64,000 bases of DNA, taken from assembly GCA_041671645.1 (NCBI GenBank), contig JBAZBD010000001.1, positions 799,234 through 863,233 on the forward strand, given 5' to 3'. Position numbers and translations under genes: made by a program. Origin of the DNA: Patescibacteria group bacterium (GTDB lineage: Bacteria > Patescibacteriota > UBA1384 > XYA2-FULL-43-10 > 1-14-0-10-43-13). This document shows positions 16,301 through 34,815 of this stretch, in pieces. Below the pieces are notes generated by a model, which was given only the letters and a program-made list of their open reading frames with translations, had not been told where the DNA came from and ran no database searches. Each line of letters starts with the position of its first letter. The first letter of the stretch is position 1.

Positions 16301-19300
16301 GAAGTCTTGCTGGTATCCCACCTGGAGAGGAATTGGAGGGCAAAGTTGGCCGTGACGGTGATATCAACGGTGACATTGGTGTCGGTGCGGGCGGCAGTAG
16401 TATTGGCATCTGACCAGTCTACGAAATAATAGCCAGCTGCTGGGGTAGCGGTAACTTGTGAACCGTTGGCACCGTAGTCAACAGTCTGTGGCGATGTACC
16501 AACAACTGAACCATTCGATCCAGCGTTGTAGGTCAAGGTGTAGGTGTTGATAGCAAATGTAGCCGTAACTGAAATATTATCAGCAACATTGAGATCAGTT
16601 CGAGCCGCGGTCATGACATCATCAGACCAAGATACGAAATGGTAGTTAGCAGCAGGAGTAGCGGTAACTTCTGAGCCGCTTGAGCCATGGTCAACAGTCT
16701 GGGGGGTGGTACCGACAATCGAGCCATTGGCGCCAGCAGAGTAAGTAAGAGTGTGGGTGTCGATGGCAAAACTAGCAGTCACTGCGATATCACCTGCTAC
16801 GTTTGAGTCAGTACGAGCAGCAGTCATGACGTCATCAGACCAAGATACGAAATGGTAGTTCGCAGCAGGAGTAGCGGTAACTTCTGAGCCGCTAGCGCCG
16901 TGATCAATGGTCTGAGGGGTGGTACCGACAATCGAGCCATTGGCGCCAGCAGAGTAAGCCAAAGTATGAGTGTCGATTGCGAAACTAGCCGTTGTCGTAA
17001 TGTTGGCCGTGACGTTGGTATCCGTTCGGACTGGATTAGTAGAGTCATTGTCTGACCATTTGACAAAATGGTAATTGGCGGCAGGAGTGGCAACAACTTC
17101 TGAGCCGCTTGACCCATGGTCAACAGTCTGAGGAGAGCTGCCGATAACTGATCCGTTGGCGCCAGAGTTATAGGTAAGGGTGTAGACGGCCAAGGTTGAT
17201 TGGTCGGCAGTAGCAGAATAAGCAGTCGCAACACTATCGCCATTTGTAGCGGCCACGGAGAAAGTATATAGGGTGTTGGCGGTCAGACCGGTCACGGTCT
17301 TGCTCGAACCCCAGGTCGCATAAGCTTGCCAGACAGCTGAATCGCCGAGTGTGCTGTTGGCTTGAACATATTTCGTCGTAGCGCCGTAGACTACTTTGAT
17401 GGCATAAGTCGTATTGGATGGATTGGAGTTTTGGGCAATCAGGACTGGAATAGTAGTCGAAGTGACTGTACCAAAAGTTGGAGTGCCAGGTACATTAGCC
17501 AAAGTATACTTGGCAGCAGTAGAGCTAAATGCTGTTTCGGTATTGTCACCATTTCTAGCTTTGACTTTGTAGGTGTATTGAACATTTGGACTCAAGGAAA
17601 CATTGTCAAATCCAGAAGCACCACCCCAGGCGGCATAGTTTTGCCAGTCTTCAGAAGCTTGATTGGTGCCGTCTGCATGTTTGACATAATTCCAAGTACT
17701 TCCGCCATCAGCTGAGACAGCGATAGCATAAGTAGTAGAAGAGTTGTCAGTAAGTTTGATATTGATGACGCTAGCAGATGAAGCAGCTAGGGTTGGAGCG
17801 TCAGGGGCGGCGGCAAGGGTGTATTTGGGCGCAGCATATGCTGGAGCAGAATCGCCAATTGCATTGGTGGCGATCACCTTGGCACAATATTGAGTATTGA
17901 TTGATTTACTCGTAATAGCTTGGCTAATAGCGCCAGCGGCAGTCGTATAATCAGGAGTGCCAGAGTAACTGGCGGCCGAACAATCAGCATTGCCAGCGGC
18001 AGTATAGACCTTGAAGCCGGTCTCGTTGCTGGAAGCGTCAGTCCAAGTCACTGTAAATCCAGTGGTAGTCAGCGTCCCAATGGCAACTGTGTTTGGCTCC
18101 GTTGGGGCAACGTCGACTGTGGTCTGAGCAGTTCCGCTAGATAGAGCGGTCTCAACATTGTCTCCGTTCTTGGCTTTAACTTTATAGGTATATTCTGTGT
18201 TGGCGGTGAGGCCAGTATTGGTAACTCCAGAAGCGCCACCCCAGGTAGTATAATCTTGCCAGACAGCAGAAGTATCTGAAGAACCGTCCGCCTGGACATA
18301 TTTGCTCAGAGTATCATTGTAAACGGCATAATTGGTGCCGGCTGGGTTGGAATTCTGGTTAATTTTGACGGTTAGAGAGCTCGAGGAAGTGGCGTCTACT
18401 GTCGGAGCAGAAGGTACATTAGCCAAAGTATACTTGGCAGCAGTAGAGCTAAATGCTGTTTCGGTATTGTCACCATTTCTAGCTTTGACTTTGTAGGTGT
18501 ATTGAACATTTGGACTCAAGGAAACATTGTCAAATCCAGAAGCACCACCCCAGGCGGCATAGTTTTGCCAGTCTTCAGAAGCTTGATTGGTGCCGTCTGC
18601 ATGTTTGACATAATTCCAAGTACTTCCGCCATCAGCTGAGACAGCGATAGCATAAGTAGTAGAAGAGTTGTCAGTAAGTTTGATATTGATGACGCTAGCA
18701 GATGAAGCAGCTAGGGTTGGAGCGTCAGGGGCGGCGGCAAGGGTGTATTTGGAAATCGAGTCGGTAGCTGCTGTGGTCTCTCCGTCTCCGTTTCTAGCCT
18801 GAGCGGTGTAGGAATACTGAGTATTTGGCGAAAGGCCAGTATTGGTAAGGGTATTGTTGTTGGTATTCCAAGAAGCAAAACCCGTGCCAGTTCCGGCAGA
18901 TTTAGTAATGTAGAGGCCAGATGAGCCAACGGACAAGTTGGTAAATGTGCCGGTAGCAGAGACTTGGATCGAATCAGTAGCTATCGTCCCGAAGGTGATA
19001 CCGGAAGCGGCCTCGATAGAGGAGTAGGCAGAAGCAGTAGAGGAAGCCTGGCCCAAAACTCCGTTGTAAGCACGGACGTAATTTGTATATTGAGTATTGG
19101 CTGAGAGTGAACCTTGATCATACGCCGAAGCGGATGGGCTCCCAACGTCTGAATCATCGGAGCTCTTTAGAAGTCTGTAGCTAGAGGCACCTGCGACATC
19201 AGCCCAATCCCAAGATATTTGAGAAGCGGTGTTGGCGGTGTGAGTCAAGCTTGCAGGCTGTGCCGGAGCGGAAGTAGCAGTGCCAGCAGAAGAGGCAGAA

Positions 19301-22300
19301 GTTTCGGTGGTGTCACCGTTTCGAGCCAGCGCTTTGACGGAATACAACGTGTTTGAGGTAAGATTTTTCAGGTAATTGACTGTGCCAGTTTCCCAATTTA
19401 CCTTGGTCTTCCAAACCTTTGATGCGCCGCAAGTGCCATCGCCCTGTAGCCATGAGTCTGGAGTTGCGTTGCAGGAAAGAGCAAACTCAGTCCCGGCTGG
19501 ATTTGAGTTGACATTGATTACCGCGGCCATATTATTTCCGCTGGCTGCGCTCCAATCGTAAGCAGTGACAGTGGGGGCATCTGGCGTATTAGCCAAAGTA
19601 TATTTCGGTGCAGCAAAGGCTGGATCAGAATCCCCGTCTGCATTGGTAGCGATCACTTTGGCGCAATATTGAGTATTGATAGTTTTGCCCGTAATGGCCT
19701 GGCTGGTAGCATCTGCGGCAGTGGTATAGTCTGGGGTGCCAGAATACGAAGCGGCGGAACAATCAGCGTTACCAGCGGCAGTGAAGACTTTGAATCCGGT
19801 CTCGTCGCTGGAATTATCAGTCCAAGTAACGGTAAATAAAGTAGAGTCAATCGAAGTGATCGCCACAGTGCTAGCCGCATTTGGCGGAGCCGAAGCGAAC
19901 CAGTTTACATTATTACCGGCGCTCGTAACGTTTGAACCTGAGTTATCGGTATAGATCGCAGTCGCGTTTGCATTTATCGAATCTTTCACTGAAGCATAAG
20001 AGATTGCTCTTGTGCTCTGAGGATCTATAGACCATGTAGAGCCATCAGAGGAAGAATTTAGAGAGATAACTCGACCAGAAGCTCCAGAAACCGTCAGCGC
20101 ACCTGCGATTGTTTGAGTTTTACTTGCCTCAAATTTCAAGGTTTTTGTTGTTGTCGCCCCAGGCTGTATTGTCACAGCGCTAAAAGTGGTATCGCCTGAA
20201 ATATCCTGGATGGAGCTATCTCCTCCATTGAAGACGACCGTGCCAGAATTGTGGGTGAAAGTACCAGCAGTGTGAGTGAAATCATTCGCAACGCTCATAG
20301 TGGTTGACGGAGCAGCGAAGGTACCGTCAGTTTGGATAAAACTACCCACAGTAACTGCATTTGCGCCAGAAGTGAAAGTGCCAGAGGAAACCGTTAGATT
20401 GTTCGAGGCGACAAGAGCGTCAGAAAGCGTAATTGATCCTGTCCCGCCCTGGCTCAAAACAATTTTTTTGTATGCATAGCCAGTAAAGTCACCAAGAGAA
20501 TACGGCGCTAGTCCTGTGTTTATCGTTGCAGCAACAACATTGGTTGATCCATTTATTTTGGAAACTGAATTTGCGCTGGAATTAGTAACCCAGACAAAAC
20601 CGCTTGCATCCACCGCAACACCGCAAGGAGCGCTTCCAACTGTGACTGTCGCAGCTACAGCATTTGTGGCTGTATTTATCTTGGTTACAGTATTTGTACC
20701 TAAATTTGAGACCCAAACAAAGCCGTTGGCATCAGCCGCAACGCCAAATGCATTCGTCCCCGCAGAAACAGTCGCTACAACTGTGTTTGTTGTTGGATTG
20801 ATTTTCGAAACATCACTTGTGCCATAATTCGGAACCCAGACAAAACCATTCAGATCAACTGCGACACCAGCAGGCTGTGTACCGACCGTAATAGTTGCCA
20901 CAACTGTGTCAGTCGTAGCATTGATTTTTGAAACTGTATTGCTATTAAAGTTTGCAACCCAGACAAAACCACTTGAATCGGCGGCGATTCCATAAGCACG
21001 CGCACCGACGTTCACTGTTGCTGCAATTGCATTTGTTGTCGGATTTATCTTGTACGCTACATTGTTCGTACCGCTAGCTACCCAAACAAACCCATTAGAA
21101 TCTATGGCCACGCCATAGGGATCAGAACCAATCGTAATCGAAGCATCTACGCTATTAGTGGAAGCATTAATTTTTGTTAAAGTACCGTTTGATCTGTTGG
21201 TTTGCCAAATAAACCCAGAATTATCAACAGCCACGCCAAATTCGGCCGCTCCGATTGTATGTGTAGTCACTGCGTTTGAAGATGTATCAATTTTTGTCGT
21301 CGTGGTTGCGCCAGAATTTGCAATCCACGCATAAGGAGTTGAAATCGTACCGGCCTGACCAGCCACAGTAATATTGTAAAAATCGTTGCTATTGCTAGCG
21401 ACTGTAGCAGCTGCTGTACCGTTGAAGTTTACCGTTGAAGTCCCTTTGGTGAATGTGCCACCAGTATTATTCCAGCTTCCACCAATATTTATTGTGTAAT
21501 TTCCCGCACTTAGAGTTCCCTCAGCAAGATTCAACGCTCCATCATCATTCAAATCCGCGCCGAGAGTAACCGTATCCGTGTAGCCAGTATTGATAGAGAG
21601 AGATTTGATGTGAGCAGTGAAACCGCTATCGAGAGTTGACGCCTTGGTCGAGGTGGAGTCAAAGACGACATCGCAAGCAGCATCAGGTACAGTATCAAGA
21701 GTCCAGTTCTCAGCTGTACTCCAATTGTTCCCTGTACCGCCGCCATCCCAAACACAACCAGGCAAAACGTCCCAATTGGTCACATTCACACCCTTGGTCC
21801 AGTTGGTCGGGCTTATTGGATTGGCCGCGTTATTCTTCGAATTTGAGACTGAAACATAGTCGACAGTCCACTGATTATCCATGCTCGTGCTTGGAGTGAT
21901 TTCCCATTGTGCACCAGTACCGTTGCGTTGAAGTGTTAACAAATTATCAGCGATACCGGTAGCGGTCCACTGGCCAGTCACAGTCTGATTCGTGCCTGGA
22001 TTGAAGCTGATCGTCCGAGCAGTCGAAGTCGTCATTGTAAAATTGTAAAATTCAGTCGAGCCGCCAACGACTTGGGCCAAGCTCGCAGAATTGAGCTCTA
22101 CGGTACCGTAGTTGTTGCTGAAAGTACCTCCGTCCCGAATAAAATCACCACTAACTTTCATGGTGCCGTTTGGAGCTGAAAAAGTACCAGTGTCCTGAGC
22201 AAAGTGTTTTGTCTCTACGTTGTAGCCATAAGCATTGAATGTATTCGCGAGCGTAATATTCAGCGAATGCTCGACAAGTAAAGTGTCCTGAGTCACGACT

Positions 22301-25300
22301 GTACCGTTAGCAGAGTTTGCAGATAATTGGTAGAACTGGTTGCTGCCGCATTTAACATAGTATGTGTTGGCAGAGTTGATATTGTTGATCCATACCGCGC
22401 CGTCGTTATTCACAAACGTACCACCGCCAGACATGTCGAAGAGGAAGTCAGTGGCAACATCATTGGCGTCAAGTGTTAGGACCTGGGCAGGCGCGTTAAA
22501 TGTACCGCCATAGAGATAAAAATTGTAACTTTTAATTGTAACGGTGGCTGTGTTGCTGTTGAAGGTGCCCGAGATAATAGTAGTAGAATAACCGTTCAAG
22601 ACCAAGGTTGAAGAATTGGAATTAAAAGTGCCGCCGTTTAAGTATAGTCCGCCTACTGTCACAGTGCCTGTACCAGCATTGAAAACAGCACCAGACTCAA
22701 CATAGAAGCTGCCCATGTCGCTAGAAGTAAATGTGGCAGTGGCATTGATTGTACCGTAAATATATGCGCCAGAAGAACCAACACTTGCACCTGGGGTATA
22801 AACTTTTGAAGCCGGGATATGAAGAGAATAACTAGTCGAGAGTACATTGGAACCATCGACACTGAACAAGATTTTTCCATTCGCGTCAGAACAATTATCA
22901 GCAGTCGCAAGAATAGTATTGGTCATCGGGCCAGAGTCTTCATAGGTGAGAGAAACCAGGTAAGAGTAAAGCGACAAGCCCGTGATGTCGCTAGAGCCGG
23001 CCGCAACAGTCACAATATTACCAGCTGAATAATTGCCATCTTCGAAGAAAATTGTAATAACTGTTCCGGCGGTAACACCGCCGGCGACGAAATCAAAAGC
23101 GCCATTCCCATCGGTTGCCATTGTCTGTTTTGCACCACCATTAACCGAGGCAGAAACATTTTGCCCAGAGCCAACATTCCCCTGCCCAATTCCCTGATAT
23201 GCAGTACCCGAGATATGACTGCCGAGCCAGTTGGTATTATTACTACCAGATGCAGTTGAGTTGGTCGGTGCGATTGGTCGAGAATTTAGATTGTTTGAAT
23301 CAGAATAAGTAACACGATCGACTGTCCAAGGCGACATCCCACTGGTGTTCGCATTTATCTTCCATTGGCCCGAGCCTGCAGTGCCGTTGAGCTTCATGAC
23401 AATGTTATTCCCAGCCGCGCCCTGTATTGTGAGCGCTCCAGAAATAGTCTGGGTTGAGTCTGCTGCAAAAGATAATGTCTTGCCAGCAGTGGCACAAGTA
23501 AAGCTAGAAGGAGCGTTGTCGCCAGAGATCACCGATTCTTGAGCAGTATCAAATGTCACGACATAAGGCGAGAAAGTGCCGCCAGCCGTCGTAGTCAGAT
23601 TGCGTCCGATTGTAATATCGCTACCTGAGAAATAAGCGCCTGAGCTGATAGCCGCATCGCGCCCAACAACAACTGCATAAGACGGCGATAAATAGCCGTT
23701 CGTCACAGAAAAGTCATTCGATACCGTAAAGCCAGCACTATAACCTACTGTCCCATCACCAGTGTTTGCGTAAATATAATTATAGATAGGCGGAACGTTT
23801 GTAAACGTATATGGATTGTAACTGCTATTAGCAGGAATTGAGCCAATTTTGAAAGTACCATTGGCGTTATTGAAAGTACCGCCAGAGATATTCCAAGTAT
23901 AATCACTATAATATCCGTTTGAGTCAGTTGTAATAGTCAATGTGCCCGAAGTAGATGTAAATGTACCACCGCTCATCGCAAATGATGCGTTTAGCATAGT
24001 AATCGTAGCAGTGTCACCATTAAATGTAGCACCGGTGCTAACCGTAATTTGATAATTTGATAAGGTCAAATTTGAAGTGTTAGCATTGAAAGTACCGCCA
24101 GAGAAAGTAGGAGTAGCCAAGATGTGAGTACCGCTACCAGCATTGAACTCGCCGCCAGCCTGATAAAATGAGCTGGAAAGAGTGAGGTTATTGGCTTCCA
24201 TCTCAACAATGCCATCGTTATACATACCATAGGCGTTTACATTGCCGCCAGGAGTAAACATCGTATACTGAGTGACATAAAGATCATACATAGTACTGAG
24301 AGTCGAACCAGAGACCGAGAAATCAGAGAAACAGCCGCAGTCATCAGCAATCGCTAAATCTGCGTTTGTAATAGCCCCTGCGGTATAGTCACTGTAAAGA
24401 GTGGTCTTGTATCGATACATATTGAGACCAGTTTTGTCTATGGCGGATTCAGGCAAATAGACGATACTGCCGGAATTGTAGCTCGGATCATTATCAATAA
24501 AGATGGTGACTGGTTTGCCAGCAACAAGCTCGACCCCGCTAAAGGAAAAAGTACCACCGGAGCCAGTGACGCCCGACATCTTTCCGCCACCGTTTGAGGT
24601 AATGGAAATCGGGATATCAGCGCCCAAAACGCTGCCGCCGATACCATCGTAAATTGTGCCGGAAATCGTATTGCCGCCAGAATATGTAACTGTTAATTTT
24701 GGATCGAGTGCCGTACCATCATTTTCTGCAAAGTAGCCATAGAAGTAGACACTATCATAATCGGCATTTATGGTTGGCTGACTATCTGCAGCATCAGCAG
24801 TGATTCTAAGACCAAGCTTCGTAACACCAGATGTACTAATAGCTGCTAGACCGCTTGCATTCATCGCGAAATCGTTGTATCCCATATCGTTGTAACTGGC
24901 GTACGGAATCGCAGATGCAAATGCAGTTGTTCCGAAAGTGTCGTAATCCGATGCTTGAAGCGAAGTGTTGCTAGAAGGGTTCGAGGAATACAGACCCAAA
25001 CTCGAATTCCAACCCGAAGGGTCACCCATCTTGTATGCGCCATATACGGAAAAATTGGCAGCTGAGATAGTCGCGGTGTTTGGGATGCTAGAAGTATCAA
25101 AGAGAAACGCACTTCTTGAGACGTAAGCCCAAGCAGCGTTGTTGCCAGCGGCGATTGCGGCCATATCACCGCTTGTTCCGTCATCAGCAGCGCTATATCC
25201 GCCAGACCTTATGGAAGCCCAGTCCCAATTGCTCCTACTGCTGTAAGTGTACCCATCAACAGACGTGACTTCAGTATGAGTATTTGGATAATAAATAACA

Positions 25301-27273
25301 TCAGTATCAATCTTCATGTCAGACTTTGGCGCTGTCTCTTGCCAGACAAAGCTTGAATCCAAGCTGCCTTCGATCTTTTTGGCTTCGACTGCGACAACCT
25401 TGTCTTGGCCAGTCTCATCTTTGACGACTTCACCAGTTGAGGCATTTACATCAAAAGCTTCTGGCTTGTCTCTGAATTTGAGATCGTCTTTGACGACGAC
25501 AGTCTTGTTTTCTTTGGTCTCTGGGTCGGTGACGACAACACTTCCTTCTTTCCCGCCATCAGTCTTGGTCACATTCCACTGGAAATTCTTCGGCGCGTCT
25601 TCGCCCTTGATTGTCTTCCAGAGACGTACACCATACTCAGAGATGTCAAATTCAAATTTGAGGTTACCGTCATCGGTTGTGACCTGGCTATCCTCAGCCA
25701 AAATCTGTGGTGCAATCCATTTGGAAAGCGCGTTTCTGGTATCTTCGGCCATCTTCTGGTCAGGAGTGTTGATATCGGCCCAAGCCACTTTGCTGTCAGT
25801 TCCCTTTGATTTTGATAAAACTGGATTGCCATCGACGTCTTTCAGGGTCACCGTATATTTGTCGCCAGTTTGTCGAGACTCGATTTCATAGCCAATCTTG
25901 TCTTTGAAAACTTTGACAGTAGAGGGCATCTGGTCAAAAAGCACATATTCGGGCGTATCGATGGAATGATTTGGGTTGATATCCTTCCAGCTTGAGTCAG
26001 CCTTGGCATAATCTTCTTTGTAGTGGACAAGGCCGGTATAGGACTCTAGAGTCTTGGTGCCGTTCTTGTTGTCGATTGTCTTGGTAGTCTCTGTGCGATC
26101 AGCGACAATCTCATTTGGATTGGCCAAAATCTGGTCAGTGCCGTTGTTTGAAATAGTAGTATTCTTCTGGCCCTCTTCTTTGGCGATGACAAATGAATAT
26201 TCCTGGCTCCATGGCGACCAAGCGCCAACAGAGTCCTGATAGCGAACGCGAGAGTAGTAGGTTCCTTCGGTGAGTAGAGTTGTTAGCTTGATATTTGTCA
26301 GTTCGTCTTTGGGCTCTGTCTTTGTCTGATCGAAGATCGGAGAAGCATAATCGCCAGATTTGGTCGAAATCTGCCACTCTGAAGCGTTTTGCGTGTCATT
26401 GTCGATATCAAGATAAGAGCTAGCGCTTAGGGTCTGAGTATTTCTAAACAAGCTTTTGTCAGCAGTGAACGAGAGACCGGTTGGTGTATTTGGAAGTCTA
26501 GAGTAGAGCAAGGTCAAAGAGTGCAAAACAGGCGAAAGACTAGCGTCGCCAGTCGAAAGGGTCAAGCGTATGTAGAGAGTCTCGGAATCGGCCATCTCAA
26601 GGACATCGCTCGAAAACAAAATGTTGTCAGTAGAAAATTCCTTTTTGACAGCACCGCCGTTGAGTACTTCGCTGGCCTCGATCGAAAGCCAATCGACAAA
26701 CTCACCCTTGGCCGGGGTGTAGGCCAAAATCGCGTTGCCAGATTCCTGGTACTGATTTTGTGTAATATCTGAGTCTAACTTCGCACTTTGGGAAAGAGAG
26801 AGAGAATTGGGGTTATCGGCTGTCGAAAGTCCAGAAATAGTCCAACTCTGCCAAGCTTCCTGTGTGCCCCAAGCCACTTGTGAAGAGGCGAAAGTGCGAA
26901 TGACGCTGGTAGCAAAAACGGAGGTGAAGATAAGGGCCACGATGCCAGACATGTAGCCGGAGAGTGAAACCCAGTGAATTGCAGAAGCAAACGGGCTCAT
27001 GTGCCACTTGTAGTACCATCTGAATTTCATCCGAAGATTGTTGTGGAGGGTGGCGAAGACTGGAAAAGTAACCTTGGTCGAACGCTGGATCAAAATGATT
27101 TCACGTTCAAGCTGAGCTTCCTTCTTTTGGAGCTCTTTTTGCTTCTCCGCGACAATCACCTCTTCTTTGGTGAGACCTTCAATCGCTGCCTTGTCCTGAG
27201 GCAACAAAGTGTACTTCTCCAAAGGTGCTTTTTTGGAAAAATGACTGCGGAAAAATTTGCGTAGGCCCTTCAA
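7390..27273 (-). CDS. Giant cell-surface protein (adhesin-like), 6,627 aa. From N to C it has a cytoplasmic coiled tail and TM signal-anchor, many FN3 domains, a YVTN 7-blade beta-propeller, WxGGG..NW beta-helix repeats, Listeria-Bacteroides repeats, DUF285 repeats and a C-terminal TM with CarbopepD_reg-like modules.
   Basis: Single uninterrupted ORF. TTG start at 27273 with an AGGAGG RBS 4 nt upstream. The TM MSGIVALIFTSVFATSVI sits about 115 aa from the start. Recognisable repeat classes are listed in the findings. Confidence 0.8.
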   Translation of the reverse strand: MKGLRKFFRSHFSKKAPLEKYTLLPQDKAAIEGLTKEEVIVAEKQKELQKKEAQLEREIILIQRSTKVTFPVFATLHNNLRMKFRWYYKWHMSPFASAIHWVSLSGYMSGIVALIFTSVFATSVIRTFASSQVAWGTQEAWQSWTISGLSTADNPNSLSLSQSAKLDSDITQNQYQESGNAILAYTPAKGEFVDWLSIEASEVLNGGAVKKEFSTDNILFSSDVLEMADSETLYIRLTLSTGDASLSPVLHSLTLLYSRLPNTPTGLSFTADKSLFRNTQTLSASSYLDIDNDTQNASEWQISTKSGDYASPIFDQTKTEPKDELTNIKLTTLLTEGTYYSRVRYQDSVGAWSPWSQEYSFVIAKEEGQKNTTISNNGTDQILANPNEIVADRTETTKTIDNKNGTKTLESYTGLVHYKEDYAKADSSWKDINPNHSIDTPEYVLFDQMPSTVKVFKDKIGYEIESRQTGDKYTVTLKDVDGNPVLSKSKGTDSKVAWADINTPDQKMAEDTRNALSKWIAPQILAEDSQVTTDDGNLKFEFDISEYGVRLWKTIKGEDAPKNFQWNVTKTDGGKEGSVVVTDPETKENKTVVVKDDLKFRDKPEAFDVNASTGEVVKDETGQDKVVAVEAKKIEGSLDSSFVWQETAPKSDMKIDTDVIYYPNTHTEVTSVDGYTYSSRSNWDWASIRSGGYSAADDGTSGDMAAIAAGNNAAWAYVSRSAFLFDTSSIPNTATISAANFSVYGAYKMGDPSGWNSSLGLYSSNPSSNTSLQASDYDTFGTTAFASAIPYASYNDMGYNDFAMNASGLAAISTSGVTKLGLRITADAADSQPTINADYDSVYFYGYFAENDGTALDPKLTVTYSGGNTISGTIYDGIGGSVLGADIPISITSNGGGKMSGVTGSGGTFSFSGVELVAGKPVTIFIDNDPSYNSGSIVYLPESAIDKTGLNMYRYKTTLYSDYTAGAITNADLAIADDCGCFSDFSVSGSTLSTMYDLYVTQYTMFTPGGNVNAYGMYNDGIVEMEANNLTLSSSFYQAGGEFNAGSGTHILATPTFSGGTFNANTSNLTLSNYQITVSTGATFNGDTATITMLNASFAMSGGTFTSTSGTLTITTDSNGYYSDYTWNISGGTFNNANGTFKIGSIPANSSYNPYTFTNVPPIYNYIYANTGDGTVGYSAGFTVSNDFSVTNGYLSPSYAVVVGRDAAISSGAYFSGSDITIGRNLTTTAGGTFSPYVVTFDTAQESVISGDNAPSSFTCATAGKTLSFAADSTQTISGALTIQGAAGNNIVMKLNGTAGSGQWKINANTSGMSPWTVDRVTYSDSNNLNSRPIAPTNSTASGSNNTNWLGSHISGTAYQGIGQGNVGSGQNVSASVNGGAKQTMATDGNGAFDFVAGGVTAGTVITIFFEDGNYSAGNIVTVAAGSSDITGLSLYSYLVSLTYEDSGPMTNTILATADNCSDANGKILFSVDGSNVLSTSYSLHIPASKVYTPGASVGSSGAYIYGTINATATFTSSDMGSFYVESGAVFNAGTGTVTVGGLYLNGGTFNSNSSTLVLNGYSTTIISGTFNSNTATVTIKSYNFYLYGGTFNAPAQVLTLDANDVATDFLFDMSGGGTFVNNDGAVWINNINSANTYYVKCGSNQFYQLSANSANGTVVTQDTLLVEHSLNITLANTFNAYGYNVETKHFAQDTGTFSAPNGTMKVSGDFIRDGGTFSNNYGTVELNSASLAQVVGGSTEFYNFTMTTSTARTISFNPGTNQTVTGQWTATGIADNLLTLQRNGTGAQWEITPSTSMDNQWTVDYVSVSNSKNNAANPISPTNWTKGVNVTNWDVLPGCVWDGGGTGNNWSTAENWTLDTVPDAACDVVFDSTSTKASTLDSGFTAHIKSLSINTGYTDTVTLGADLNDDGALNLAEGTLSAGNYTINIGGSWNNTGGTFTKGTSTVNFNGTAAATVASNSNDFYNITVAGQAGTISTPYAWIANSGATTTTKIDTSSNAVTTHTIGAAEFGVAVDNSGFIWQTNRSNGTLTKINASTNSVDASITIGSDPYGVAIDSNGFVWVASGTNNVAYKINPTTNAIAATVNVGARAYGIAADSSGFVWVANFNSNTVSKINATTDTVVATITVGTQPAGVAVDLNGFVWVPNYGTSDVSKINPTTNTVVATVSAGTNAFGVAADANGFVWVSNLGTNTVTKINTATNAVAATVTVGSAPCGVAVDASGFVWVTNSSANSVSKINGSTNVVAATINTGLAPYSLGDFTGYAYKKIVLSQGGTGSITLSDALVASNNLTVSSGTFTSGANAVTVGSFIQTDGTFAAPSTTMSVANDFTHTAGTFTHNSGTVVFNGGDSSIQDISGDTTFSAVTIQPGATTTKTLKFEASKTQTIAGALTVSGASGRVISLNSSSDGSTWSIDPQSTRAISYASVKDSINANATAIYTDNSGSNVTSAGNNVNWFASAPPNAASTVAITSIDSTLFTVTWTDNSSDETGFKVFTAAGNADCSAASYSGTPDYTTAADATSQAITGKTINTQYCAKVIATNADGDSDPAFAAPKYTLANTPDAPTVTAYDWSAASGNNMAAVINVNSNPAGTEFALSCNATPDSWLQGDGTCGASKVWKTKVNWETGTVNYLKNLTSNTLYSVKALARNGDTTETSASSAGTATSAPAQPASLTHTANTASQISWDWADVAGASSYRLLKSSDDSDVGSPSASAYDQGSLSANTQYTNYVRAYNGVLGQASSTASAYSSIEAASGITFGTIATDSIQVSATGTFTNLSVGSSGLYITKSAGTGTGFASWNTNNNTLTNTGLSPNTQYSYTAQARNGDGETTAATDSISKYTLAAAPDAPTLAASSASVINIKLTDNSSTTYAIAVSADGGSTWNYVKHADGTNQASEDWQNYAAWGGASGFDNVSLSPNVQYTYKVKARNGDNTETAFSSTAAKYTLANVPSAPTVDATSSSSLTVKINQNSNPAGTNYAVYNDTLSKYVQADGSSDTSAVWQDYTTWGGASGVTNTGLTANTEYTYKVKAKNGDNVETALSSGTAQTTVDVAPTEPNTVAIGTLTTTGFTVTWTDASSNETGFKVYTAAGNADCSAASYSGTPDYTTAAGAISQAITSKSINTQYCAKVIATNAIGDSAPAYAAPKYTLAAAPDAPTLAASSASVINIKLTDNSSTTYAIAVSADGGSTWNYVKHADGTNQASEDWQNYAAWGGASGFDNVSLSPNVQYTYKVKARNGDNTETAFSSTAAKYTLANVPGTPTFGTVTSTTIPVLIAQNSNPSNTTYAIKVVYGATTKYVQANSTLGDSAVWQAYATWGSSKTVTGLTANTLYTFSVAATNGDSVATAYSATADQSTLAVYTLTYNSGANGSVIGSSPQTVDHGSSGSEVVATPAANYHFVKWSDNDSTNPVRTDTNVTANITTTASFAIDTHTLAYSAGANGSIVGTTPQTIDHGASGSEVTATPAANYHFVSWSDDVMTAARTDSNVAGDIAVTASFAIDTHTLTYSAGANGSIVGTTPQTVDHGSSGSEVTATPAANYHFVSWSDDVMTAARTDLNVADNISVTATFAINTYTLTYNAGSNGSVVGTSPQTVDYGANGSQVTATPAAGYYFVDWSDANTTAARTDTNVTVDITVTANFALQFLSRWDTSKTSSGSSTATQIHLPLESTGTYNFIVDWGDSSTSTITTWNQAETTHTYASGGIYDLKIGGTITGFRFNNAGDKLKLSQISQFGPLRLGNSDGYFSGTKNLKITATDVLNTTGTTTMKNSFRDSGIDTVPSMNSWDMSAVTDMYCMFESSSLFNQDISSWNTGAVTSMYAMFYNAFVFNQNIGSWNTTNVINMAYMFESAWAFNQNISSWNTGSVTTMREMFWNNSAFNQNISNWNTGAVTNMNQMFYSAAAFNQNLASWNVVNVTDMTNMFSSSALSNANYSNILIGWSAQAVKSNVTLGAATKKYTLGAAADGRAHLVSAHTWTITDGGPSAFVLTYSAGSGGSIVGITPQTVDYGANGSEVTATPAANYHFTSWSDGVLTAARTETNVITDKSVTASFAIDTHTLTYSAGANGSVVGSTPQTVNYGANGSQVTATPAANYHFVSWSDDVMTAARTDSNVAGDIAVTASFALDAPASATGVTITPTSSTTFNVTWTDNSSIETGYKVYTADGNADCSAASYSGTPDTTTSADAVSQAIASKSVNTQYCAKVVATNSGGDSAPAYAAPKYTLANVPTFTTVAGDYSDADLWHLDTTINASANPAGTNYYIQYSTNDGAGAGNFYDPNAMAWQTETTYLFKKDKDNVDLAANTQYWMKVKAKNGDNVETIYTSTSVADVTPPAAPTALNITNICTTKATTTWTAATGADSYTVSYGTDTAATNIGTLTTATTSKQITGLSNTTTYYWKASATSTANGTGPYAAPSSFETSNCGVESPDDFAGSAASTTQINWTWSDITSEETGYKVEDSAHTSLSGNLDAGSTSYNETPLSANTGYTRHVNVYNGGGSQDSNSDTVYTLAAVPGQPTVTTLSSSRIRITVDKNGNPNANTRYAIAVSADAGSTWNYVKNADGTTQVSEDWQLYADWGGDSGFANTGLTKNTNYIYKIKARNGDNVATDFGATNNTTTLDNFSVTISSDGSGSGSLDQVTQIVDAGADVTTTATAAASSDFVSWTGCDTVATNICYLTDVSADRSITAVFTIKTYTITINEAGTGTGDLDQVTQDVNYGANLTVVATADISSTFTGWSGDATGTGDASFTNITANKTITATFTIKTYTITINTTGTGMGDLDQATQTVNYGANLTVVATPAASSTFAGWSGDATGTGDASFTNITANKTITATFTIRSYTVTISKAGNGTGDLDQSTQVVTYGANLTVAATPAVSSDFTGWSGDAAGTGSAALTNITADKTITATFTLKTYTISSSAGSNGAISPLGDNLANYGTSPEYTITPSDGYYISNVVVDGSAISGTLPSSYTFTNVTATHSISVSFAANNTCVWDGQAADDNWSSADNWTANIIPSATCDVIFDATSTKDSTLDASFTSHIKSLSVNTGYSGTISANTTLNDDGDFTLNAGTFTANAQTLNIAGSLTMTADPTAVFNEGTSTINFNPTTTGKTITTNGQVLGNLIFNGVDAVIDPNVTLLNNNISLLANHTLTAGWTFQDNVSAQSLTANAGTLVDGGKSVNIAGDIIIANKVGVLASTGVWTQSSSGNIANPDMHNTFGSLVAAGSGITSTMTAGVSVGLGSGSAGAFTVGPGTLMGIGKAVIVYSRSNDSVTVNNLTADSRLGVLAIYPQIADMTQKAITLPSNFATTFSFQQDPTGILTATGNFNFGNSNVIVAKDRTTTPAGYVDMSTHNLTCKNLTIGSTSTNEYATIPGYLKLGSGTTNIAGSLSHGNASNIGNKLDLGSGTINVGGNWDTSNITVTPGTSTVDLTGTGTLQSKGYAAAPYDFYNLKLAHNGNTTNAISSVTTSNVLYTYAGGTLNGDNRYAFRMYKSDGDAVVNTGANFTASTFLVYRPSSDVTVAGQNFGQGSVAYSGVTNDVAITLSSDVTTTRDIYAYSITTGKRTTLNAVDNNLTARNLYLAYPVYGVGTANLGSGTHEFTNGIFRYTGSTDDTNVLNLESSSVSIGGNIDFTGMTVDPGTSTITLNGIGGQTVAGSNTFNNLSATASAARTISFASDTTQTVNGALSLNGTSAGNITLSRSGGTGTDQWKIDPKGSTSTSYLSVENSKNLSSAVIDPSNSINLGNTNKWFPPTGTISFSSARTNQIDQTLTLSSSTGTQMKVSNSPDFSGSEYETFSTSKSWTLAAPTVDGMKTVYLKVKDIDGDESPTASASIILDITAPSAPTNLTALSASASVSLSWVNPTDTDFANVAIFRSTEADFTPNIGTNKIAYTTLSSTATYIDSNVTSGVTYYYKVEAIDSVDNYSAASNQASGKPDSDKPTAPGKPTVSGKTNTIDNIEYYNQPAVTLTWPAATDTNSGILNYSIKICKTSGCANANDALSLSTLTSPSNSLTLDGASALADGTYYVRVAANDNLGNQFAWSEELTFILDTVLPSSLEKVEAFDISDRVNSDYRVMLRWKASTDTGSGLLGYTIVKNGNNIISESTSGVQVDASGYASYVDTVTPNTQFNYSVFSFDLAKNQTASMAAEFQTTTVVDCSGCVILPPDEPGEGTLEISDVKATPSELMSEKAQATITWKTTVPATTQVKYGASAPYPYTTEVDTGLNSFHTVVLSDLDFNKTYHFAVISKDKYGQTAESTDFTFATKDIFKEQSVLDTVISNLSGTAMKVRDIIGQMQIVGVNNSGQPVVFGIPTSTTTPASTAAVAGIAIISAAAAPLANAATLFSLPEYIRSLIFALASLGTKKSRRKWGRVLEVGTYIPIAQAKLTLFKLTQTFPGSFSKRPVANTYSDIEGNFSFVADPGKYEIEVTKDLYEVSEAPGFYKKGQIIEVKSEQEGLIVPNILLSMNDKSIAKRFSFIEKIGVVEKVLVYVSLGFLIFGTVSILNSLAHSHRDTVTLVSALLFPLLWYVNIKSFVKVSPWGNVLDSVNHSGVSLALVRIMDGEGKRLIRTAVTNEKGKFSTVLPKGKYKLLVAKAGYKPSDATHMDAQEKLQTVSRKIEIDRDK
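12757..12850. repeat. About 95-bp perfect intragenic repeat, copy 1. It is the coding sequence of a 72-aa Listeria-Bacteroides-type repeat unit.
   Basis: The sequence gattgtaaatgtggccgtaattgtcttgttagctgtgatgtt.gtgaaagatgcgtcccctgtgccagttgcgtcgccagaccaacca recurs 216 bp later. Confidence 0.7.
12972..13068. repeat. About 95-bp perfect intragenic repeat, copy 2.
   Basis: See copy 1. The period is 216 bp, or 72 aa. Confidence 0.7.
17489..17828. repeat. 340-bp perfect intragenic duplication, copy 1. It encodes an FN3-type segment.
   Basis: The stretch from ggtacattagccaaagtatacttggcagcag to gcaagggtgtatttgg is identical base-for-base to 18413..18752. Confidence 0.85.
18413..18752. repeat. 340-bp perfect intragenic duplication, copy 2.
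   Basis: Identical to 17489..17828. The period is 924 bp (308 aa, roughly three FN3 domains). Confidence 0.85.
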
Positions 27274-31842: not shown

Positions 31843-31918
31843 TGGAGCCGCATTCGAGATTCGAACTCGAGACCTCCACTTTACGAAAGTGTTGCTCTAC
31901 CAGCTGAGCTAAAGCGGC
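31843..31918 (-). tRNA. tRNA-Thr (anticodon CGT).
   Basis: The reverse complement folds as a cloverleaf with anticodon loop TTCGTAA, T-loop TTCGAAT and CCA encoded. There is one T-T mismatch in the acceptor stem. Confidence 0.8.
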
Positions 31919-31919
31919 A

Positions 31920-31993
31920 TGGAGCGGGTAGTGGGAATCGAACCCGCGACTCATCCTTGGGAAGGATACATTTTACCACTAAACTATACCCGC
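31920..31993 (-). tRNA. tRNA-Gly (anticodon CCC).
   Basis: The reverse complement folds as a cloverleaf: acceptor GCGGGTA/TACCCGC, anticodon loop TTCCCAA, T-loop TTCGATT, discriminator U and CCA encoded. One C-A mismatch lies in the T-stem. Confidence 0.75.
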
Positions 31994-32145: not shown

Positions 32146-33153
32146 ATGGAACAGAAAAAAGTTATATTGACAGGAGACAGACCGACAGGCAAACTTCACC
32201 TCGGTCATTTTGTCGGTTCACTCCAAAATCGAGTCAAATTGCAACATGAGTATGAACAATTCATACTGATAGCCGACCTCCAGGCCCTGACAGACAACTC
32301 TGAAAATCCGGAAAAAATTAGGTCAAATGTCCTCGAAGTAGCCCTAGACTACCTAGCGGTTGGAATAGACCCGGAGATTTCCACAATATGTATTCAGTCC
32401 GAACTGCCCGCACTTTCTGATTTGACAATGTACTACTTAAATCTCGTCTCGCTTGCCCGACTTCAACGCAATCCTACAGTTAAAGATGAAATGAATCAAA
32501 AAGGCTTTGGAGCTGAAGTCCCTGCCGGATTTTTGACATATCCGATCAGCCAAGCCGCCGATATATCTGCATTTAAGGCAACTTTGGTACCAGTCGGCGC
32601 TGACCAGCTCCCGATGATTGAGCAAACCAACGAGATCGTTCGCAAATTTAATCGTGTTTACAATTCCAACGCATTAGTTGAATGTGAAGCACTAGTATCC
32701 GAAACTGGTCGACTTCCTGGTATCGACGGTAGCAACAAGATGTCCAAGTCCCTTGGCAACTGCATATATCTCTCAGATTCAGCTGAGGAGATCAAACAAA
32801 AAGTCATGAATATGTACACCGACCCGGATCACATCCATGTCGAAGATCCAGGAAAAGTTGAGGGGAATACTGTATTCGCCTATCTCGACATTTTTGATGA
32901 AAACAAAGACGAGATCGCGAAATTAAAAGAAGAGTACAAAAAGGGCGGCCTTGGCGACGTAACACTTAAGAATCGTTTGAATGATATTTTGCAGGAATTG
33001 CTCAATCCAATCAGAGCAAAGCGCGAAGAATTGGCCAAAGACCCAGATGCAATTATGAAAATTTTGGAAAAAGGCTCAGAGAAAGCTCGGGCAATTACTG
33101 GCAAAACGTTAGAGGAAATTAAATCTGCGATGAAGCTGGATTATTTCGCATAA
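32146..33153 (+). CDS. trpS: Tryptophan--tRNA ligase.
   Basis: Class I HIGH-type motif TGKLHLGHF and KMSKS. Length and conservation fit TrpS. The ATG at 32146 has an AAAGGA RBS. The upstream extension in the ORF track is rejected. Confidence 0.9.
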
Positions 33154-33158
33154 GATTC

Positions 33159-33184
33159 AAACGCCTCATATGTCTGAGGTGTTT
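33159..33184. repeat. Palindromic hairpin element AAACGCCTCATATGTCTGAGGTGTTT, copy b of the repeat family. It is the likely trpS terminator.
   Basis: Starts 5 nt after the trpS stop. The arms AAACGCCTCA / TGAGGTGTTT are shared with copies a and c. Confidence 0.55.
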
Positions 33185-33238
33185 CCGATATCCACTTCAT
33201 TGATTTTTGAGTCCAAATTTGTTATAATCCATTCTATT

Positions 33239-33287
33239 GCGGGGGCGTAGTTTCAGCCAAAGGCTGATCAGCCTCTGGCTGACAGTT
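33239..33287 (+). pseudogene. tRNA-Asp 5' fragment (GGGGGCGTAGTT...CAGTTGG) interrupted by a 30-nt double-hairpin insertion.
   Basis: gggggcgtagtt and cagttgg match nt 1-19 of the intact tRNA-Asp at 33564. Between them lies tcagccaaaggctga-tcagcctctggctga, two tandem hairpins. Confidence 0.5.
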
Positions 33288-33294
33288 GGAAAAT

Positions 33295-33573
33295 ATGCAT
33301 TTTGTTTATTTCTTAAAAAGTATTACCAACGGAAAGTATTACGTCGGTCAGACAGATCGCGAACCTTCTGTACGTTTACAAGAGCATAATTCTGGCCATA
33401 ATTCATGGACAAAAAAGAATGGCCCCTTCGAACTGATTTACCACGAAAGTTATGCATGCAAAGAAGATGCTAGGAGGAGAGAAAACTTTTATAAATCTGG
33501 TATTGGCAAAAGGGTTATGAAAGCGATAATCGAGATATTTGTTAATAAGGAAAAACCAACTACGGGGGCGTAG
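33295..33573 (+). CDS. GIY-YIG nuclease family protein (YhbQ/UPF0213-like), about 92 aa.
   Basis: VYFLKSITNGKYYVGQT...RLQEHN matches the GIY-YIG core. The ATG at 33295 is preferred over the upstream TTG. The 3' end overlaps tRNA-Asp by 10 nt. Confidence 0.65.
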   Translation: MHFVYFLKSITNGKYYVGQTDREPSVRLQEHNSGHNSWTKKNGPFELIYHESYACKEDARRRENFYKSGIGKRVMKAIIEIFVNKEKPTTGA

Positions 33574-33640
33574 TTCAGTTGGTTAGAACGCCACACTGTC
33601 ACTGTGGAGGTCGCCGGTTCGAGCCCGGTCGCTCCCGCCA
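33564..33640 (+). tRNA. tRNA-Asp (anticodon GTC).
   Basis: Cloverleaf with acceptor GGGGGCG/CGCTCCC, anticodon loop CTGTCAC, T-loop TTCGAGC, discriminator G and CCA encoded. Confidence 0.9.
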
Positions 33641-33723
33641 TATGTTGGTTTTTCCTTAAGAATAATGTCTCTCTAGCAGGTCTGGGGCAGAGGCCCGCCC
33701 ATCCTCGACTGGGCTCCCGCCAT

Positions 33724-33756
33724 AAAAAAGGATAGCTCTTCGAGCTATTTTTTTGT
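33724..33756 (+). terminator. Rho-independent terminator (ATAGCTC-ttcg-GAGCTAT followed by T7), possibly bidirectional.
   Basis: A6 run, 7-bp stem, tetraloop and T7. It sits directly after the 12-nt repeat of the tRNA-Asp 3' end (gctcccgccata at 33715..33726). Confidence 0.6.
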
Positions 33757-33825
33757 TGCAGAGCCGTCAAGACTCGCACGAGATTAGCGTATTTGATATA
33801 ATCAAAAAAATAAATTGGAGTTAGA

Positions 33826-34815
33826 ATGTCTGAGCATAATCTTGGCGCGAGTAAAAGCGATACAAAATTTTCAGCATCGGATGAACAAGTTAATCCAATA
33901 CAACCTGGCGGTCCTTTGCCAGACCATATGCTATGGGAAACCAGTGTAGATCAGAATGATCCATCAATAGAATTGGGTATTACAACACCTGATGGCGATT
34001 ATTTTCCATTCGATCATGGCGAATCGCTAATTATGATCATGATGGCAGATGGCCAGAGACAACCATTTGTTAGACTGAAAAGTGGCCAGGAAGTCAGGTT
34101 TGAATCTTGGAGATTATCAAGAAGACAAGAATTTGCTGAAGTATTAGACAATGTCGACGAAGATTATAAGGCAGCATATCTCGCGGCACTGGAAGACTTC
34201 CCCCATCTTGACCAGATGCAAGTCGAATTGGCAACTTCCCAGCAATATCCAAATCTGAAGTATACTGGCGGCTTTTGGCGAAAACCTCAAAGCGACGCAG
34301 ATGCTCCAAAAATTGTTGTTATTATGGGGCAAAATGGGCTATATGAACAGCTACTAATCGATCGAGAGCTCTCGGCCAGAAAAAGTGCTGAGATAATCGG
34401 TATCGATTTCGAGGTGATGAAAGAACACCCAAATATTTTAAAACTTTTTATTTTCCTCCATGAAATCGGCCATGTTGAGGATTATATAACAAACTTTCGC
34501 AAGAAAAGTGAATTAGACGGTTCTGATCCAGTGCAGGCAAAACGAGAAAAACGCAATCGAGAAATGGTCACTTTGCCTATTCCTGGAGTAAGTCCAGATT
34601 TGGCGAGACGAATGTACGACAGCGGAGAGCTCCAAACATACTACGCAAAATATCAACAAAATTACCAAAGGATTAGAGGGTTAATGTCGGTTGAAGAATT
34701 GCTAGATGCCAACGAGATTGCTTACCATGAGCTCCCGTCAGAGAGATATGCTGATCAACGGGCAGGAGAGATATTAAGAAAACATTGGAACGTATTAATC
34801 AATCACACCAAATAG
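33826..34815 (+). CDS. Hypothetical protein with an HExxH zinc-metallopeptidase motif, 329 aa.
   Basis: LFIFLHEIGHVEDY (HEIGH). It has its own TGaTATAAT extended -10 element and a GGAG RBS. No signal peptide is present. The family is not recognised, though ImmA/IrrE-like is possible. Confidence 0.55.
   Translation: MSEHNLGASKSDTKFSASDEQVNPIQPGGPLPDHMLWETSVDQNDPSIELGITTPDGDYFPFDHGESLIMIMMADGQRQPFVRLKSGQEVRFESWRLSRRQEFAEVLDNVDEDYKAAYLAALEDFPHLDQMQVELATSQQYPNLKYTGGFWRKPQSDADAPKIVVIMGQNGLYEQLLIDRELSARKSAEIIGIDFEVMKEHPNILKLFIFLHEIGHVEDYITNFRKKSELDGSDPVQAKREKRNREMVTLPIPGVSPDLARRMYDSGELQTYYAKYQQNYQRIRGLMSVEELLDANEIAYHELPSERYADQRAGEILRKHWNVLINHTK

Follow-up and report, generated by a model that had tools for sequence, protein, structure and literature searches.

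The SegB protein of phage T4 is a GIY-YIG enzyme of the phage tRNA cluster that recognizes GGTTCRANTCC within tRNA genes, leaves 2-nt 3' overhangs, and homes along with the neighboring tRNA genes (PMC2330249). SegB homologs are tRNA-linked and drive segmental amplification of the tRNA-containing segment (PMC13096335). As a free-standing GIY-YIG homing endonuclease, SegB of T4 and T6 is the closest described system in its logic (PMC2330249, PMC13096335) to the element considered here, a cassette in which a small GIY-YIG nuclease gene lies between pieces of a tRNA-Asp gene. The cassette is found in a 64,000-nt stretch of DNA (the window) from a Patescibacteria group bacterium (assembly GCA_041671645.1, contig JBAZBD010000001.1, positions 799,234 to 863,233). 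Coordinates below are positions in the window, and loci with L numbers are fetched comparison sequences.

The likeness to SegB has several sides. In both systems the nuclease genes sit in or next to tRNA genes, and in both there is a statistical association with tRNA. SegB targets the T-loop box GGTTCRANTCC, and relatives of the window's cassette have pairs of hairpins placed exactly in this box, at GGTTCG|AATCC. The segmental amplification driven by SegB also has a counterpart in the tandem partial tRNA copies that are common in cassette loci. The differences concern the protein and its setting. SegB comes from a phage and has a DNA-binding region besides its catalytic domain, and its gene lies between genes and splits no tRNA. 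The cassette, in contrast, encodes a catalytic domain only, 92 amino acids (aa) long, is chromosomal in the candidate phyla radiation (CPR) and in other bacteria, is absent from IMG/VR, and is nested with double hairpins in a disrupted copy of the tRNA that it carries.

Other described systems share single features with the cassette. A GIY-YIG open reading frame (ORF) in the mitochondrial atp6 gene of Allomyces, attributed to Paquin, Laforest and Lang in 1994, reportedly carries a duplicate of the gene part that it displaces. The likeness lies in a nuclease ORF that enters an essential gene together with a replacement copy and leaves the original part as a downstream pseudogene fragment. The Allomyces case concerns a mitochondrial protein gene of which only the 3' part is replaced, whereas here a whole tRNA is replaced and remnants lie on both sides. 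Double-hairpin elements in mitochondria are said to have been described by Paquin et al. in 2000 and the bacterial REPINs by Bertels and Rainey in 2011. They resemble the hairpins of the cassette in being short and GC-rich and in consisting of two stem-loops, and there is evidence that they move and insert into structured-RNA genes and intergenic DNA. They differ in being dispersed, each genome having tens to hundreds of copies, and in the reliance of REPINs on RAYT transposases, whereas the window has one hairpin pair in 64 kb, tied to the GIY-YIG cassette and to tRNA loops.

Slx1 and the plant junction resolvase HIGLE are structure-specific GIY-YIG nucleases that cut DNA at branches and junctions. 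Together with the UPF0213 proteins (Protein Data Bank entries 1zg2 and 1ywl), they are the best matches to the cassette nuclease in sequence or fold, and junction cutting would suit hairpin, cruciform, or cloverleaf DNA. Slx1 differs in needing Slx4 and in having a RING domain. To our knowledge, UPF0213 proteins have no assigned function and no reported link to tRNA-gene mobility. Insertions that encode GIY-YIG proteins have been reported in CPR rRNA genes, where they are not group I or II introns and lie at stem-loops (PMC11270868). These share the host group, the nuclease superfamily, and a structured RNA gene as target with the cassette family, which has its own 16S rRNA case (L040-L042); the report makes no mention of tRNA genes, hairpins, or target duplications (PMC11270868).

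The element thus belongs to a known kind, the free-standing GIY-YIG homing-type elements. The layout with paired hairpins in the loops of a disabled tRNA copy, recurring at many bacterial tRNA genes, appears undescribed. Full-text literature searches turned up no account of a GIY-YIG cassette lying within a cellular tRNA gene, of an element that brings a replacement tRNA, or of loop hairpins, although many subscription papers lay outside their coverage and an earlier description is possible.

A nuclease cassette nested in tRNA-Asp

We consider it about 75% probable that a homing-type free-standing GIY-YIG cassette carrying a replacement tRNA invaded the resident tRNA-Asp gene at 33241-33724; in this reading the cleavage and the role of the hairpins are what we infer. 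It is carried by the layout of the locus, an insertion polymorphism among relatives, an ORF under purifying selection, hairpins that are constrained and covary, and recurrence at tRNA genes and a 16S gene. Judged from its sequence, the cassette is a nuclease gene fused head to tail to a complete replacement tRNA-Asp, and it sits in the D-loop after nt 19. The cell retains a working tRNA-Asp because the element supplies one.

All features of the locus lie on the forward strand. The promoter of the resident tRNA-Asp gene (33200-33228) consists of TTGATT, a 17-nt spacer, and a TG-extended TATAAT, matching 10 of the 12 positions, and it now stands directly upstream of the 5' tRNA fragment, the nuclease ORF, and the replacement tRNA. 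The 5' fragment (33241-33289) is split after nt 12 by a 30-nt hairpin pair. Its first part, GGGGGCGTAGTT at 33241-33252, exactly matches nt 1-12 of the intact tRNA-Asp downstream. The hairpin pair follows at 33253-33282 as TCAGCCAAAGGCTGA (33253-33267) and TCAGCCTCTGGCTGA (33268-33282), each with a 6-bp stem and a 3-nt loop (AAA and TCT), and this 30-mer occurs once in the 64 kb, where no occurrence is expected by chance. Resident nt 13-19, CAGTTGG at 33283-33289, are stranded between the hairpins and the ORF, and the cassette junction lies after them, at D-loop position 19|20. The first-pass annotation of this DNA, made from the letters and the ORFs, had described the 5' fragment as tRNA-Asp nt 1-19 split by a 30-nt double hairpin, and the follow-up agrees.

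The 92-aa nuclease ORF (33295-33573) has no stop codon of its own; its last three codons and its TAG stop fall within inner tRNA nt 1-10, with the stop formed by nt 8-10. The inner tRNA-Asp(GTC) at 33564-33640 is intact, has an encoded CCA, and is recognized by ARAGORN and by Rfam (67.9 bits). It is bracketed by a 22-nt inverted repeat with arms at 33539-33560, inside the 3' end of the ORF, and at 33644-33665. The arms are 86% complementary over 22 nt, including 15 bp of perfect pairing, and the duplex has a predicted energy of -27.1 kcal/mol. A promoter-like site, TTGGCA-16-GATAAT, is also present inside the 3' end of the ORF at 33503-33530, about 8 nt before the 5' arm; it could supply the inner tRNA with its own start and is not obviously conserved in L001, the relative described below.

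A GC-rich spacer (33666-33712) separates the cassette from the outer 3' remnant and has no significant similarity to tRNA nt 20-66. A reading of positions 33641-33712 as the decayed middle of the resident tRNA was rejected, as the alignment was equaled by 106 of 300 shuffles; the middle of the resident gene appears from the sequence to be lost or replaced in the window. The outer 3' remnant (33713-33724) comprises tRNA nt 68-77, GCTCCCGCCA, and the trailer TA. In terms of repeats, the 12-nt GCTCCCGCCATA is present at 33631 and 33713, and its second copy precedes the intrinsic terminator of the resident gene at 33726-33755, ATAGCTC-TTC-GAGCTAT followed by seven T residues. The repeat and the strong terminator after it were already recognized in the first-pass annotation, which had put the spacing at 75 nt; the copies are 82 nt apart from start to start, with 70 nt between them. 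By itself the 12-mer barely beats chance, with a 12-mer of at most one mismatch recurring in 2 of 100 shuffles. The pattern is taken as real because the pieces of 12, 7, and 10 nt are collinear, an independent assembly (L001) shares the layout, and the locus can be aligned to an empty site.

The insert amounts to about 470 bp with the hairpins counted, and its only ORF is the GIY-YIG gene. An Rfam scan of 33100-33900 at a permissive threshold found only tRNA and no intron, riboswitch, or known leader. The nuclease gene, with tRNA-Asp remnants on both sides, is thus in or beside a conserved host gene and outside any intron. No further GIY-YIG genes or hairpin pairs were found in the 64-kb window.

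Empty, scarred, and occupied sites in relatives

The genes around the locus encode tryptophanyl-tRNA synthetase (TrpRS), enolase, iPGM, PrsA, LCP, and DnaK and are bacterial. The closest TrpRS, at 89% identity, lies on a syntenic contig (L053) with the order glycosyltransferase, tRNA-Thr/Gly, TrpRS, tRNA-Asp, Band_7, enolase, iPGM, PrsA. Here the site is empty. The same -35 and -10 elements and leader (…ttgttataat…tctattgc) lead into an uninterrupted tRNA-Asp, which is followed directly by a terminator equivalent to that in the window. This single tRNA-Asp is identical to the inner copy of the window at 77 of 77 positions. The alignment to the empty site identifies the two window fragments, 33241-33289 (less the hairpins) and 33713-33722, as what is left of the two ends of the resident gene, with nt 1-12 aligning just after the shared leader. 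The hairpins, the ORF, the inner tRNA, and the spacer between the fragments constitute the insertion, as L053 has none of them. It is therefore the intact tRNA-Asp that belongs to the insert and not to the resident gene. A decoy promoter or leader, suggested at first for the upstream fragment, is unsupported, since the promoter and leader are the resident tRNA gene's own and are conserved at the empty site.

A second state of the site is seen in L054 and L055, in which TrpRS is 82% identical. These have a native-type promoter, an intact tRNA-Asp, a spacer, the 3' fragment GGTCGATCCCaCCA, and a terminator, and they lack both the nuclease gene and the 5' fragment. The 3' fragment and terminator of L054 are homologous to those of the window (score 50, reached in 0 of 300 shuffles). 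This state looks like a scar, the expected product of recombination between the outer and inner 5' repeats.

The third state is represented by L001, an independent 514-bp contig from ENA with a nuclease 75% identical to that of the window, the only close homolog in the protein index. Its layout is that of the window, with the 5' fragment, hairpin pair, ORF, tRNA, and bracketing repeat, including the 3' arm. The bracketing duplex reaches -30.9 kcal/mol in L001, compared with -3.7 for the tRNA at the empty site. L001 also keeps outer tRNA nt 20-29 and 37-68 on the 3' side of the cassette, which shows position 19|20 of the D-loop to be the cassette's point of entry and the loss of the resident middle in the window to have come later. 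A single site is thus polymorphic for presence and absence: empty in L053, scarred in L054 and L055, and occupied in the window and L001. The comparison of orthologous loci that had been proposed as a check thus finds the cassette present in L001 and absent in L053, and not a universal fixed arrangement.

The nuclease

A GIY-YIG ORF between the tRNA pieces had been recognized from the letters, and its product matches Pfam PF01541 with 57.8 bits against a cutoff of 22.6 (E value 1.4e-15) over residues 1-68. The nearest solved structures by sequence are the UPF0213 proteins BH0048 and EF2693 (1zg2 and 1ywl). An AlphaFold2 model (pLDDT 86.4) has the family's fold of a three-stranded sheet with helices, its elements being in the order E-E-H-H-E-H-H. 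Foldseek gives UPF0213 (1zg2), HIGLE, and Slx1 as its best matches, followed by the I-TevI catalytic domain and UvrC. The 92-aa protein consists of the catalytic domain and one C-terminal helix. By sequence and model it is a UPF0213/Slx1-like single-domain GIY-YIG protein. NCBIfam has no model that matches it, and a match in PHROGs to a "homing endonuclease" family covers only the catalytic stretch of a 574-position profile.

Between the window and L001 the ratio of nonsynonymous to synonymous divergence (dN/dS) is 0.12 at a dS of 1.39, and the ORF is thus under purifying selection. Across 26 cassette proteins, Y5, Y16-x-G18, R27, E30/H31/N32, and E63 are at least 90% conserved. The conserved Tyr, Tyr, Arg, and metal-binding Glu presumably correspond to the catalytic residues of I-TevI. 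The protein is probably functional, and nuclease activity is predicted from its family, conservation, and fold.

The hairpin pairs

Across the cassette family, tandem hairpins are present in nearly every disabled tRNA copy, where they lie in the tRNA loops. Pairs in the T-loop are invariably placed at GGTTCG|AATCC (L005, L010, L017, L035, L038, L039, L043). Those in the D-loop are mostly immediately 5' of G18 (…GTT|GG…) or at 12|13 as in the window, and pairs in the anticodon loop are found in L010, L046, and L049. In about 280 kb of fetched sequence there are 17 pairs with the 6-3-6/6-3-6 geometry; for tandem hairpins of any geometry, 54 are observed as against 11 in shuffles.

Twelve pairs yield the consensus TCNNCC-NNN-GGNNGA. 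Of their 12 stem positions, 8 have changed on both sides and none on one side only, in pairs that had been selected by a detector demanding perfect stems. Between the window and L001, where the pair was found by its context and not by the detector, hairpin 1 shows two compensatory base-pair changes and hairpin 2 is unchanged. The 49-nt region of fragment and hairpins differs at 8 of 49 positions between these two, in contrast to 63% of synonymous sites, which argues that the region is constrained. The 30-mer can be folded as a single long hairpin in the window, and this fold was rejected because it is 81% paired across relatives versus 100% for two hairpins, the latter figure being partly built in by a detector that demanded perfect stems. 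An origin of the palindromes as P nucleotides or by fold-back from flanking tRNA was also rejected: TCAG is shared with the Asp D-loop, and nothing comparable is seen at the Pro and Ser loci.

Several features concern the level at which the structure acts. In a relaxed scan the stems are nearly free of G:T pairs and show no strand bias; non-Watson-Crick pairs are so scarce (about three G:T and three A:C) that the test for G:U strand bias leans only weakly to DNA. The two loops of a pair are mutually complementary (AAA/TYT, ATCC/GGAT), which gives dyad symmetry as duplex DNA. Given the few G:T pairs, the lack of strand bias, and this symmetry, the evidence leans toward a DNA-level structure.

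The hairpin family tracks the nuclease clade in 18 of 21 nearest neighbors and does not track tRNA identity, and identity is 62% within families versus 43% between them. The hairpins therefore belong to the element and not to the target. In L023 the pair lies 3' of the ORF, in the disabled copy, so the pair is not simply a signal of the 5' untranslated region (UTR). The sequence comparison thus makes the pairs more than an incidental insert: they recur as a module, their structure is under selection, and they are passed on along with the nuclease clade. Pairs of the same family are also present in intergenic DNA with no nearby tRNA fragment, at 356-385 in L058, 181-210 in L044, and 345-374 in L045; L058 is an IMG/VR contig labeled as viral that has one hairpin pair and no tRNA.

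Recurrence at tRNA and rRNA genes

Back-translated pattern scans gave 19 homologous loci in genomes and 32 in metagenomes. The association with tRNA genes was counted over 41 nonredundant loci and evaluated by a binomial test with a background expectation of 0.005 per locus. A tRNA on the same strand starts within 40 nt of the ORF stop in 17 of the 41 (P ~1e-28), and in another arrangement, seen in 4 of 41, a tRNA ends just before the ATG. The linked tRNAs represent eight isotypes (Val, Pro, Ile, Ser, Gly, Tyr, Cys, and Glu), in addition to Asp in the window. The host lineages are mostly CPR (Saccharibacteria, Giovannonibacteria, Komeilibacteria, and Paceibacteria), and some metagenome-assembled genomes with cassettes are labeled Gammaproteobacteria, Bdellovibrionales, Ignavibacteria, and others.

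Most examined loci have pieces of the same tRNA at the flanks of the cassette, usually 100% identical to the intact copy (72/72 in L005 and 67/67 in L039). In L017 a complete outer tRNA-Ser is split at its anticodon loop, and this outer copy is damaged. Tandem arrays of partial, hairpin-bearing tRNA copies are found in L029, L035 (at 1064, 1286, and 1794), and L049. The last of these has two identical 102-nt units of hairpin-bearing partial tRNA at 1860-2035, which resembles SegB-driven segmental amplification.

Layouts that lack the ORF also occur. At a tRNA-Gly gene in L003 (4860-5021) a partial 5' copy with a hairpin pair is followed by an intact tRNA. At a tRNA-Ser gene in L010 (1-260, reverse strand) the pair lies in the anticodon loop, and the leader "atctt" is duplicated as well. 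In these two cases the intact tRNA begins 18-31 nt after the partial copy.

The range of targets extends beyond tRNA. A relative of the nuclease is found at the 16S rRNA gene in L040-L042, and the 5' end of this gene, tttttcagaggatttgatcctggtccaggatgaa, is present in duplicate there. A 20-nt palindrome, CCTGCCTGCCGGCAGGCAGG, is inserted in the duplicated 16S 5' end (L042 at about 90-260, and also L040 and L041), and the same palindrome is present in the D and T loops of tRNA-Ser in L009 and L017. This case ties in with the reported and unexplained GIY-YIG insertions in CPR rRNA genes (PMC11270868).

A bracketing inverted repeat was considered as a general hallmark and rejected; it is strong in the window, in L001, and in a few others, with P 0.22 against other tRNAs. 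As a separate observation, a tRNA-Ala by the cassette in L023 (1290-1390) is bordered by the arms of a perfect inverted repeat (about 11-15 bp, cccacaccttt / aaggtgtggg, -33 kcal/mol) that resembles the one around the inner tRNA-Asp of the window, and a stray tRNA 3' fragment, ggcggttcgattccgcctaggtcca, lies just downstream of it.

A model for cassette movement and its alternatives

The proposed mechanism would begin with the resident promoter, from which nuclease ORF and replacement tRNA are presumably transcribed together into a single RNA. The nuclease would break tRNA genes that lack a cassette. It could find its site in conserved tRNA boxes, like T4 SegB, or through DNA structure, in keeping with the Slx1/HIGLE-like fold. 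Repair of the break would copy the cassette in, with tRNA sequence serving as the homology arms. The hairpin pairs would interrupt the D-loop GG and T-loop TTCGA boxes and so leave the disabled copy uncleavable; alternatively or additionally, they may be a structured site bound by the nuclease. Repeated cut-and-repair between copies would keep the copies identical and could yield the tandem partial copies. With the stop codon inside the tRNA, RNase P processing would strip the stop from the mRNA, which may limit synthesis of the nuclease.

Certain features bear on these steps. In the disabled copy the hairpin pairs interrupt those two tRNA boxes that are most conserved, which fits a destroyed recognition or cleavage site. 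The Slx1/HIGLE-like fold and palindromes capable of forming cruciforms fit a structure-specific enzyme. That inner and outer copies are usually 100% identical, and that tandem partial copies exist, is an indirect hint of cut-and-repair copying. The split of GGTTCG|AATCC by hairpins is a circumstantial hint that the nuclease may recognize the T-loop box.

A number of points weigh against an invasion by homing. The tRNA supplied by the cassette has the very sequence of the presumed target, so the occupied allele would somehow have to escape cutting. The nuclease has no sequence-specific DNA-binding domain, unlike I-TevI and SegB and the other Seg proteins, and no relatives of it are found in IMG/VR viral contigs. 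Cleavage and homing are here drawn from the comparison of sequences, and presence and absence in three relatives fits gain or precise loss alike. For the hairpins, the perfect pairing owes something to the detector's demand for perfect stems. A DNA-level structure fits the few G:T pairs and the lack of strand bias without proving a function, and the pairs away from tRNA fragments (L044/L045, L058) may be independently mobile. Nor is the bracketing inverted repeat a general feature (P 0.22).

The alternative to be taken most seriously touches only the hairpin part of the homing account and is tentative at best. Here the pairs would be independent miniature palindromic mobile elements, similar to REPINs or the mitochondrial double-hairpin elements and mobilized in trans by the cognate GIY-YIG nuclease, that pile up in disabled copies because insertion into a functional tRNA is lethal and that have no role in immunity or regulation. 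Target tRNA sequence between the pair and the ORF (33283-33289 in the window and 48 nt in L038) is awkward for a single contiguous insertion and speaks for this alternative. Several pairs per outer copy (L017, L038, L049, L030, and L035), ORF-less duplications with pairs (the second site of L003, and L010), and pairs outside a tRNA context (L044/L045, L058) point in the same direction, as do the tracking of hairpin type with nuclease clade and the near-strict Watson-Crick pairing without strand bias. However, the 64-kb window has a single copy and none at its other four tRNA genes, no signature of transposition such as a target-site duplication is seen, and the strong conservation of the pair between the window and L001 at a dS of 1.39 points to a function within the cassette. 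It is unlikely, by comparison, that the GIY-YIG protein is a domesticated tRNA- or RNA-directed enzyme (for processing, repair, or quality control) that is coexpressed with its tRNA. The hairpins and the bracketing stem would then be RNA signals, a 5' UTR stabilizer or a control through RNase III or RNase P, and the fragments would be by-products of an old duplication. The single transcription unit of ORF and tRNA behind a tRNA promoter, the strong purifying selection on ORF and leader, and the 15-bp perfect stem around the tRNA in the window and L001 would all suit such an enzyme. A prokaryotic Slx1-like GIY-YIG domain is also known fused to the tRNA Gm18 methyltransferase TrmH, which has been read as a hint of RNA metabolism (PMC1564403). 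Yet the close relative L053 does without the gene at the same locus and L054/L055 have lost the ORF, while similar proteins stand at eight tRNA isotypes and a 16S gene, each with fresh partial duplications. Moreover, the pair 3' of the ORF in the disabled copy of L023 is no 5' UTR element, the stems are without G:U pairs, and the bracketing stem is confined to some loci.

The first-pass annotation had offered two kinds of mobility for the locus, and they fared differently. A GIY-YIG cassette of the homing type inserted in a tRNA gene is supported by the empty, scarred, and occupied sites, whereas the att-like arrangement fell away. A short direct repeat of the tRNA 3' end at the distal border does recall the att sites of islands, but the insert of about 470 bp holds no integrase or other ORF besides the nuclease and no kilobase-scale cargo, and the 5' end of the tRNA is duplicated as well as the 3' end. 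Insertions in tRNA loops are likewise reminiscent of archaeal introns removed at the RNA level; the host, however, is bacterial (DnaK, PrsA, LCP), no group I or II intron turned up with Rfam in 33100-33900, and splicing would give no functional outer tRNA, with outer nt 20-66 missing in the window and the outer copy damaged in L017. Both the integrase-type islet and the intron are very improbable. Even less credit is due to a chance repeat or an assembly artifact, for which the source in a metagenome-assembled genome and the recurrence of the 12-mer in shuffles might speak: an independent ENA assembly has the same layout, dozens of analogous loci come from unrelated projects, and the boundaries align cleanly to the empty site. 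A different matter is a variant of the invasion by homing in which the nuclease has no sequence specificity of its own and is directed by nucleic-acid structure or by a guide, which we regard as a long shot. In the structure-directed version the nuclease would recognize four-way-junction (cloverleaf) DNA extruded by tRNA and rRNA genes, which the Slx1/HIGLE-like fold would fit. In the guide-directed version the hairpin pair would be a protein-binding scaffold, and the flanking tRNA-identical sequence would pair with the target and position the cuts.

Surroundings of the locus

Other features of the window give context to the tRNA-Asp locus. A tRNA-Thr(CGT) and a tRNA-Gly(CCC), 1 nt apart, are found on the reverse strand at 31843-31993, and the same pair is present in L053. 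Directly 3' of the tRNA-Asp locus, a 329-aa ORF on the forward strand (33826-34815) has a HEIGH motif of the HExxH type and no match in Pfam or PHROGs. This ORF is missing from L053 and present in L054/L055, in which tRNA-Asp and the 329-aa ORF are inverted relative to TrpRS. With this insertion or deletion of the ORF and the inversion, the neighborhood of tRNA-Asp looks like a hot spot of indels and rearrangement. Farther away, a single giant ORF of 6627 aa occupies 7390-27273 on the reverse strand.

Implications

The finding places the orphan UPF0213 family, which is widespread and has two solved structures, in a biological context, the invasion of tRNA and rRNA genes. The design is one in which a nuclease gene splits an essential and often single-copy RNA gene and remains harmless, as a replacement copy is carried along. 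Such cassettes would also explain stray tRNA fragments and duplicated halves that confuse tRNA annotation in CPR and other genomes. The double hairpins at the D-loop GG and T-loop TTCGA boxes are a new structural module, with immunity, nuclease docking, and mobility as candidate roles. Direction by structure or by a guide, if true, would explain how near-identical tiny proteins come to stand at nine tRNA isotypes and a 16S gene, and why the hairpin-bearing fragments are 100% identical to the tRNA and the hairpin type coevolves with the protein. In that case the cassette would be a natural "cleave-and-rescue" element with its own rescue tRNA. If targeting is indeed structure- or nucleic-acid-guided, the family would represent a very small programmable nuclease system.

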